A stretch of 53,032 bases of DNA from an uncultured Candidatus Bathyarchaeia archaeon (GTDB taxonomy: Archaea; Thermoproteota; Bathyarchaeia; 40CM-2-53-6; JALHTG01). Shown here piece after piece: positions 42,058 through 45,523 of this stretch (within the stretch, counting starts at the first letter, position 1; the number at the start of each line of letters is the position of its first letter). Below the pieces are notes generated by a model. The model worked only from the letters and a program-made list of their open reading frames with translations. It ran no database searches and was not told where the DNA came from. Position numbers and translations under genes: made by a program. The stretch lies in assembly GCA_964653695.1 (NCBI GenBank), contig CAZZFQ010000003.1, positions 1-53,032 on the forward strand, read 5' to 3'.

Positions 42058-44929
<2,872 letters not shown>

Positions 44930-44980
44930 CCATGTGAGCTCATTGTCTCCGGTCGAAATTTCCCTCTGGATGAACGGCCT

Positions 44981-45112
44981 CTAACCCCCAGTCGCAACGT
45001 TGTAACCTGTGCAGCAGGTGCAGAGCGTGCTTTCGCCGCAGTAGGGGCAGCAGCAGTTGCATGCCTCTATTGGATTTCCGCACCTTTCACAGATTATTCC
45101 TGACAAGTCCAT
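44981..45112 (-). CDS. 43-aa cysteine-rich mini-protein (11 Cys; two CxxCG knuckles), below the ORF-track cutoff
   Basis: My translation is MDLSGIICERCGNPIEACNCCCPYCGESTLCTCCTGYNVATGG*. The TAG stop at 44981-44983 is in frame with OFOR-alpha. The region is GCA/TGC-biased, so chance cannot be excluded. Confidence 0.4.
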   Translation of the reverse strand: MDLSGIICERCGNPIEACNCCCPYCGESTLCTCCTGYNVATGG

Positions 45113-45185
45113 CACAGCATAATGGACTCATCAGAAGGGCATTAAGCTTTCCTCAACAAGACGAGCAGAGAAACAGTGAAGGTCC

Positions 45186-45314
45186 TCAATCCTCTGCCAC
45201 AAGCAGCATAGGCTTGTTGCAGCAAACCAAAGTGCCTCCGCCCACCTTGACAACGGTCACTTCATTGCCACAAACCGAACACCTATACCTCTCTCCAAGG
45301 CGCTTTACTCCCAT
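45186..45314 (-). CDS. Desulforedoxin-like small FeS4 protein (42 aa), below the ORF-track cutoff
   Basis: My translation is MGVKRLGERYRCSVCGNEVTVVKVGGGTLVCCNKPMLLVAED*. It matches the Dx signature Y-x-C-x-x-C-G...GGGTLVCC...M. AGGTGG lies 7 nt upstream of the ATG. Confidence 0.75.
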   Translation of the reverse strand: MGVKRLGERYRCSVCGNEVTVVKVGGGTLVCCNKPMLLVAED

Positions 45315-45523
45315 TTCCGTCCCACCTTTATCCAAAGCGATTCATGTCTCAGACGCATTTCCTAATGGCGTTTCAGGCCTAAATGCCCCCGATTATCCGA
45401 AATAGCACCATGTAAGATTCGAAATGGCTGAAGATGTGGGCTGACTTTATGCAGAATCGTGGAAAAGGCTTAAGAACACACCGAATCCACCTAGTACCTT
45501 CTACAAGGCTTGGAGGAAAGTTA

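Follow-up and report, generated by a model that had tools for sequence, protein, structure and literature searches.

The window analysed here is a stretch of 53,032 nucleotides from an uncultured Candidatus Bathyarchaeia archaeon (contig CAZZFQ010000003.1 of assembly GCA_964653695.1), and the locus considered lies on its minus strand. A cysteine-rich mini-ORF is followed there by the genes for the alpha and beta subunits of a 2-oxoacid:ferredoxin oxidoreductase (OFOR), and the positions of these features and of the related loci are compiled in Table 1. The mini-ORF is translated as MDLSGIICERCGNPIEACNCCCPYCGESTLCTCCTGYNVATGG, with its last sense codon at 44984-44986 and the TAG (44983-44981) directly behind it. 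A sequence-only reading of this DNA had counted 11 cysteines in the mini-ORF; our recount gives 10, eight of which are invariant in the family described below, and the two CxxCG knuckles named in that reading are both present (CERCG and CPYCG). It was also right that the TAG is in frame with the alpha gene and that the 17 codons past it, RPFIQREISTGDNELTW, include no ATG, GTG or TTG. The conserved Trp of alpha is encoded at 44932-44930, and the first classical start, TTG 44929-44927, is the very next codon. The 3' end of alpha overlaps the GTG start of beta by 11 nt (43013-43023), with GGAGG 9 nt upstream of this GTG, as is typical of a coupled subunit pair. ATG, GTG and TTG together account for 6.6% of the alpha codons, and a run of 17 codons without any of them has p = 0.32; with the factor of 1/3 for the matching frame, the chance is about 0.10. 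Since this value is not small, the oddity of the locus rests on homology and not on statistics.

Table 1. Positions of the features at the locus in the window and of related loci in other genomes
Feature	Position or locus	Strand	Remarks
Conserved AAAGCTTAAT block, candidate archaeal BRE/TATA element	45141..45150	-	About 30 nt upstream of the mini-ORF start
Cys-rich mini-ORF, 43 aa	44984..45112	-	From ORF and translation; start ATG 45112, alternative GTG 45115
Mini-ORF stop TAG	44981..44983	-	Its G is the first base of the SD-like GAGG 44981-44978
Spacer	44960..44980	-	SD-like GAGG 44981-44978 and GAGGG 44966-44962; candidate near-cognate start ATC 44971-44969
ATT-TCG	44954..44959	-	TCG at the ancestral TTG start position of alpha; ATT 44959-44957 is the other near-cognate candidate
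OFOR-alpha body (gamma-alpha fusion)	43013..44953	-	From the codon after TCG to the stop 43013-43015
OFOR beta subunit	42058..43023	-	Pfam TPP_enzyme_C and PFO_beta_C; GTG start
Sister genus, ACG in frame with the mini-ORF	L019, L020, L026, L027, L029, L031		
Sister genus, start-less and out of frame with the mini-ORF (frame 2)	L030 (ACG), L025 (ATT)		
NifU-Cys8 fusion	L252:4001-4357; also L251, L253, L254		Proteins P0147, P0292-P0295

The alpha chain of the window carries the Pfam domains POR (gamma), POR_N and PFOR_II in one chain, and a TPP-binding beta gene is adjacent to it. The chain matches the S. tokodaii OFOR alpha 5B48_A over the full length (E = 6e-165), and 5B46_A is also a full-length match. 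By these similarities it is classified as the alpha subunit of a two-subunit (Sulfolobus-type) OFOR. The system resembles StOFOR1/2 of S. tokodaii (PDB 5B46-5B48) in the same gamma-alpha fusion, the end-to-end alignment, the overlap of the beta gene with the end of alpha and the lack of a ferredoxin-like delta subunit. Unlike in StOFOR, alpha of the window is preceded by a small Cys-rich gene, as it is in many Bathyarchaeia, ammonia oxidisers and Methanoperedens, and the window alpha lacks a classical start. A profile search of the PDB sequences found no Cys-rich mini-protein chain in the solved StOFOR structures. Both solved S. tokodaii alphas start 4-5 residues before the conserved Trp, which agrees with the earlier statement that Sulfolobus-type alphas begin a few residues before it, and nearly all of the 120 database homologues start 4-9 residues before it. 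In the AlphaFold model, the first strand (beta-1) of the window alpha is ELTWLIGGP, so that TTG 44929 falls in the middle of the strand, as the sequence-only reading had placed it.

The mini-ORF itself is a widespread conserved gene, a point that was missed earlier. Its family has the pattern C-x2-C-x6-C-x-C-x-C-P-Y-C-G-E-x3-C-x-C...TGG (here referred to as Cys8), and 15 positions are invariant in the alignment of 81 sequences, namely C8, C11, C18, C20, C22, P23, Y24, C25, G26, E27, C31, C33, T41, G42 and G43. The dN/dS of the window mini-ORF against its relatives is only 0-0.02, and nine synonymous changes stand against one non-synonymous change in the comparison with locus L034. Judged by these substitutions, the mini-ORF is shown to be a genuine, separate and strongly constrained protein gene of about 40 aa. 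At least 584 relatives were found in the one-genome-per-species contigs, belonging to Bathyarchaeia, Methanoperedens, Freyarchaeota, Methanocellales and Nitrososphaeraceae. The family is present in 78 of the 401 genomes sampled across the phylum, including most of the sampled Nitrosopumilaceae. In three samples of loci, the mini-ORF stands directly upstream of OFOR-alpha in 31 of 33, 74 of 80 and 4 of 4 cases, respectively; in the second of these, which is the diverse one, the Trp motif of alpha lies 26-115 nt downstream of the mini-ORF in the 74 loci, and the spacing between the two genes ranges from about 2 to 90 nt. The OFOR that follows is the gamma-alpha-fused type and not the four-subunit type, and a small number of orthologous alphas are without a mini-ORF.

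All called copies of the mini-protein are annotated as "hypothetical protein". No Pfam family matched the window mini-protein, and this includes the rubredoxin and desulforedoxin profiles; Zn_ribbon_3 gave weak matches in 12 of the 81 members, with the best E of 4e-4. The AlphaFold model of the mini-protein has low confidence (pLDDT 66), and Foldseek against the PDB returned nothing with E < 1, the top non-significant matches being ZZ, B-box, RING and LIM fingers. Moreover, a profile search of the PDB sequences with the Cys8 family found no relative, a word-index search of 5.8 billion proteins found no match for the mini-protein, and our literature search for a described small OFOR partner gave nothing relevant. 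Small C(P)XCG zinc-finger proteins have reportedly been described for Haloferax volcanii. The mini-protein shares with such archaeal zinc fingers the CxxCG/CPxCG knuckles, the size range of about 40-60 aa and the frequent lack of annotation, but it differs in the eight invariant Cys with a CxCxC core, in the invariant TGG near or at the C-terminus and in the fixed synteny with OFOR. The delta subunit (PorD/KorD, 2x[4Fe-4S] ferredoxin-like) of the four-subunit OFORs is likewise small, Cys-rich and located in the OFOR operon. However, the mini-protein is about half its size, with a Cys spacing that resembles binuclear zinc or rubredoxin-type sites, and neither the window mini-protein nor any of the 81 members has a Fer4 match or a CxxCxxCxxxCP motif. 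By analogy with this subunit, the mini-protein could fill a missing electron-transfer role.

We also compared the region upstream of the mini-ORF in five loci of related genomes (75-97%). The AAAGCTTAAT block is almost the sole conserved block in the otherwise variable spacer between a desulforedoxin-like gene and the mini-ORF, which suggests a candidate promoter inside this spacer. The mini-ORF is not preceded by an SD-like motif, and this suggests that it may be a leaderless or near-leaderless first cistron. The desulforedoxin-like gene is an ORF on the minus strand (45186-45335, 42-49 aa) with a desulforedoxin-type N-terminal domain (PF06397, Desulfoferrod_N, E = 7e-16) and with AGGTGG 7 nt before its ATG 45314. 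It was considered as a general partner of the mini-ORF and rejected, since the two genes are linked in only 4 of 82 loci, namely in the window clade and one other locus.

The start of alpha can be traced in the close relatives. In those with TTG (75-90% identity), alpha starts 8 or 7 codons past the TAG, with GGAGGG before the start, and its N-terminus reads MTSENEFTW, MTRENELTW or MATERELTW. At the aligned position, loci L002, L034/L201 and L203-L205 read ATC-TTG and L003 reads GGC-TTG, while the window, L200, L001 and L202 all read ATT-TCG. This alignment shows the ancestral start of alpha to be TTG, and one T-to-C change in the window lineage removed it. The window alpha and that of L001, both with TCG, differ by 49 synonymous and 18 non-synonymous changes (dN/dS 0.106), a ratio that shows alpha to be still under purifying selection after the loss of its start. 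Because alpha is under purifying selection and the classical start is lost, it probably initiates at a near-cognate AUH codon, ATT 44959 or ATC 44971. The former lies 2-3 nt downstream of GAGG(G) and 21 nt downstream of the mini-ORF stop, and the latter 6 nt downstream of GAGG and 9 nt downstream of the stop. Both SD-like spacings fall in the range of 2 to 9 nt used by known genes in the window. ATC 44971 is not kept as a start-like codon in L002 or L003. An ATT/ATC start was one of the options of the sequence-only reading, and with the orthologous TTG now TCG it becomes the best remaining explanation of the missing classical start, the two codons being candidates that we infer from their context.

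Near-cognate starts are known in prokaryotes, such as the AUU of E. coli infC. The window case shares with them a functional gene without ATG, GTG or TTG and an AUH codon beside an SD-like motif; unlike the infC-type AUU, it is a recent lineage-specific loss of TTG and not a conserved regulatory device. We found no RNA structure that couples the two cistrons, as shuffled sequences fold at least as stably (z = +1.0), and no Rfam family in 44700-45500. According to experiments in H. volcanii and E. coli (PMC10666635), reinitiation after termination functions over stop-to-start distances of up to about 10 nt and has nearly disappeared at about 20 nt. Coupling could therefore help initiation at ATC (9 nt) and hardly at ATT (21 nt). 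AUU-type codons have about 0.3% of the ATG efficiency in E. coli, a value that is cited in PMC10666635, and expression of alpha could thus be very low.

The same gene family offers a precedent in a sister genus, where alignment indicates near-cognate alpha starts in eight species. The start position of alpha is ATG or TTG in six species of this genus, ACG in seven and ATT in one, and the mini-ORF ends in GGRGGC TAA 3-8 nt before it. Two of the start-less species (L030 and L025) have alpha in another frame than the mini-ORF, so that read-through is excluded for them. The ACG is retained between species whose synonymous sites are saturated, and the 11 codons behind the start show 6 synonymous changes in 8 sites against 4 non-synonymous changes in 25 sites. 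Such coding constraint indicates that the stretch is translated, and the sister genus is a candidate for conserved initiation at ACG in archaea. We also considered the C-terminal Gly-Gly codons of the mini-ORF as the SD of alpha; this fits the sister genus only, and the distance is too long in most loci.

Taken together, we consider it probable that the locus holds two separate cistrons with an ordinary stop, a coincidental frame match, a lost TTG and a near-cognate start of alpha. The mini-ORF gene and OFOR-alpha belong to one operon, the former with a normal TAG stop and the latter beginning 9-24 nt later. The T-to-C change turned the TTG start of alpha into TCG in the window lineage, and alpha, as a gene still in use and under selection, would then most likely initiate at a near-cognate AUH codon. 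ATT 44959 adjoins the old start; the alternative would be ATC 44971, with GAGG 6 nt before it and the mini-ORF stop only 9 nt away, where termination-reinitiation could help.

The explanation that the TAG is read through or recoded (by pyrrolysine, a suppressor tRNA or a programmed event), giving alpha a Cys-rich N-terminal extension, was raised in the sequence-only reading and is highly improbable by now. It draws on the in-frame TAG of the window and of its close relatives L001-L003 and L034, where the frame survives a 3-nt indel in L003, and on the order-level sample, in which the frames are skewed (19/5/7) but the loci are not independent. However, alpha has a TTG start and an SD of its own in relatives that share this in-frame TAG. 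TAG is in fact the commonest stop in this genome, ending 299 of the 619 ORFs of at least 300 codons, against 234 for TGA and 86 for TAA. PylS (TIGR02367) had no match in the window genome, which is 88% complete, with the M. acetivorans control positive, and for PylD (TIGR03911) the best score in this genome, 19 bits, was below the cut-off of 150. In the whole genome, ARAGORN detected no tRNA whose anticodon is CUA, but this is weak evidence because the tRNA set is clearly incomplete, with only 13 tRNAs found and 3,700 N in the assembly. Most of these 13 tRNA genes have introns. The locus shares with the pyrrolysine UAG recoding of methylamine methyltransferase genes the archaeal setting and an in-frame TAG that separates two coding stretches; unlike those systems, the genome is without PylS and PylD, TAG is its preferred stop, and the TAG is not conserved among orthologues. 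Among 74 diverse loci, the mini-ORF stop is TAA in 42, TAG in 17 and TGA in 15, and its frames with respect to alpha are distributed as 24/21/29 (p = 0.52). This supports the other option of that reading, namely a coincidental match of the frames. Moreover, at least two in-frame stops occur in 11 of the 25 loci where the frames match. None of the 165 matches of the family profile in 1.84 billion protein representatives is a fusion of the mini module to an alpha of about 640 aa. Within the window clade, no part of the locus alignment is less conserved than the spacer, which also carries the 3-nt indel of L003. As a peptide it would read RPFIQREI, RLFVRREI or RPPWGEG and is not conserved, and its differences among the window, L001 and L202 would be non-synonymous. 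The TAG is therefore an ordinary stop. A seeming fusion of the mini-ORF to alpha in L246 (G001:C60:5600-8100, minus strand) was rejected as a deletion, which joins the first half of the mini-ORF (MCPNCEYPIDGCECACPYCS) to about residue 30 of alpha with loss of the W..GGxQGxGVD motif. Since the GGxQGxG motif is removed, it is probably a pseudogene copy; genome G001 has a second alpha besides it. Equally improbable is that the locus reflects a mistake in sequencing or assembly or a gene that died recently, with the TCG or TAG as an artefact or alpha as a pseudogene. The window does come from a single MAG of 88% completeness, and the loss of a start looks like a defect. However, the contigs L001, L200 and L202, which come from three other samples, carry the identical TAG and ATT-TCG, and because these independent assemblies share them, a sequencing error is rejected. 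The alpha frame is intact over 639 codons, and the low dN/dS given above applies to the time after the TCG carriers diverged (dS 0.12). The two genes were separate ancestrally, and the earlier suggestion of a fusion split by a recent nonsense mutation or a sequencing error is refuted.

That alpha starts at TTG 44929, giving an enzyme without the first half of strand beta-1 and its conserved Trp that works fully or less well, is unlikely, though clearly less so than the two explanations above. This TTG is the sole classical start codon, and gene callers chose it in a 97% identical relative (P0001). However, it lies in mid-strand in the AlphaFold model, no SD is found within 5-10 nt of it, and its position is CTG in the congener L034, where it is a plain Leu codon; for these reasons it is disfavoured. 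The Trp and 4-9 residues ahead of it are part of the protein in the solved homologues and in nearly all of the 120 relatives. A weak point on the same side comes from the nine codons that separate TCG from the Trp: a GAC/GAT difference among them within the TCG lineage is synonymous, yet L202 has two amino-acid changes there. Where other database entries begin at this position, a canonical start exists further upstream, and they are thus gene-caller choices. With regard to the mini-ORF, it might merely be a regulatory upstream ORF, for instance one that senses cysteine or Fe-S supply, with a peptide without its own function. The density of Cys, the position as first cistron and the short distance to alpha would suit such a role, but we regard it as very unlikely, because the eight Cys, PY, GE and TGG never vary, nor does their spacing, across phyla whose synonymous sites are saturated. 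The variable spacing to alpha (about 2 to 90 nt), the fusion of the same module to a NifU domain and the stand-alone paralogues, both described below, also speak against it.

In one clade of Nitrososphaerales, the gene 4 nt upstream of OFOR alpha and beta codes for a protein that joins a NifU domain (PF01106) to the Cys8 module as its C-terminal half (38 residues). The fusion is limited to five 90%-identity clusters. It links the family with the Nfu/NifU C-terminal-domain Fe-S carriers, while the window mini-protein has no NifU domain, and by analogy it hints at Fe-S delivery or repair. The family also has stand-alone paralogues, which are second and third copies in the genome with no OFOR gene after them; they occur at L259-L264 in the Nitrosopumilaceae genomes G323, G329, G305, G399 and G194, with the sequence C..CHN.LPHCHC.CPYCG.RD.CECALFDAATGG. 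What connects the mini-protein with OFOR is synteny together with a single domain fusion. In an AlphaFold model of a forced fusion of the mini-protein to alpha, the mini part reached a pLDDT of 51-71 with no gain in confidence, which gives no evidence for docking on alpha alone. The reading of the C-terminal diglycine as a ubiquitin-like or ThiS-like tail is weakened, because some family members continue past TGG.

The mini-protein is most likely a metal-binding accessory component of OFOR, and we infer that it would act with OFOR as a small subunit or as an Fe-S/metal-related accessory factor. A more far-reaching proposal, which we put forward only tentatively, is that the Cys8 mini-protein is an unrecognised third component of the archaeal two-subunit OFORs, either a metal/Fe-S subunit or an Nfu-linked maturation or repair adaptor, and that alpha is translated right behind it, so that several Bathyarchaeial lineages tolerate ACG, AUU or AUC starts. 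If this is true, Bathyarchaeia that are abundant in sediment, marine ammonia oxidisers and Methanoperedens would all have a third OFOR component. OFOR is central to the carbon metabolism of Bathyarchaeia and of the aerobic ammonia-oxidising archaea. A conserved Cys-rich partner that is fused to an Fe-S carrier domain in one clade is a testable lead on the maturation, protection or electron-acceptor wiring of the single-cluster two-subunit OFORs, and the lasting value of the locus lies in this conserved and uncharacterised Cys8 gene that accompanies them.

The classical start of alpha has been lost twice independently, by TTG becoming TCG in the window lineage and by ATG becoming ACG or ATT in the sister genus, and both losses are natural test cases for near-cognate initiation in archaea. 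For annotation, the locus matters in that gene callers shorten OFOR-alpha by 10-14 residues in the window lineage and usually miss the mini-gene. Database alphas beginning with "MxGGPQG" were considered as more start-less cases and rejected, as all four that we checked have canonical starts upstream.
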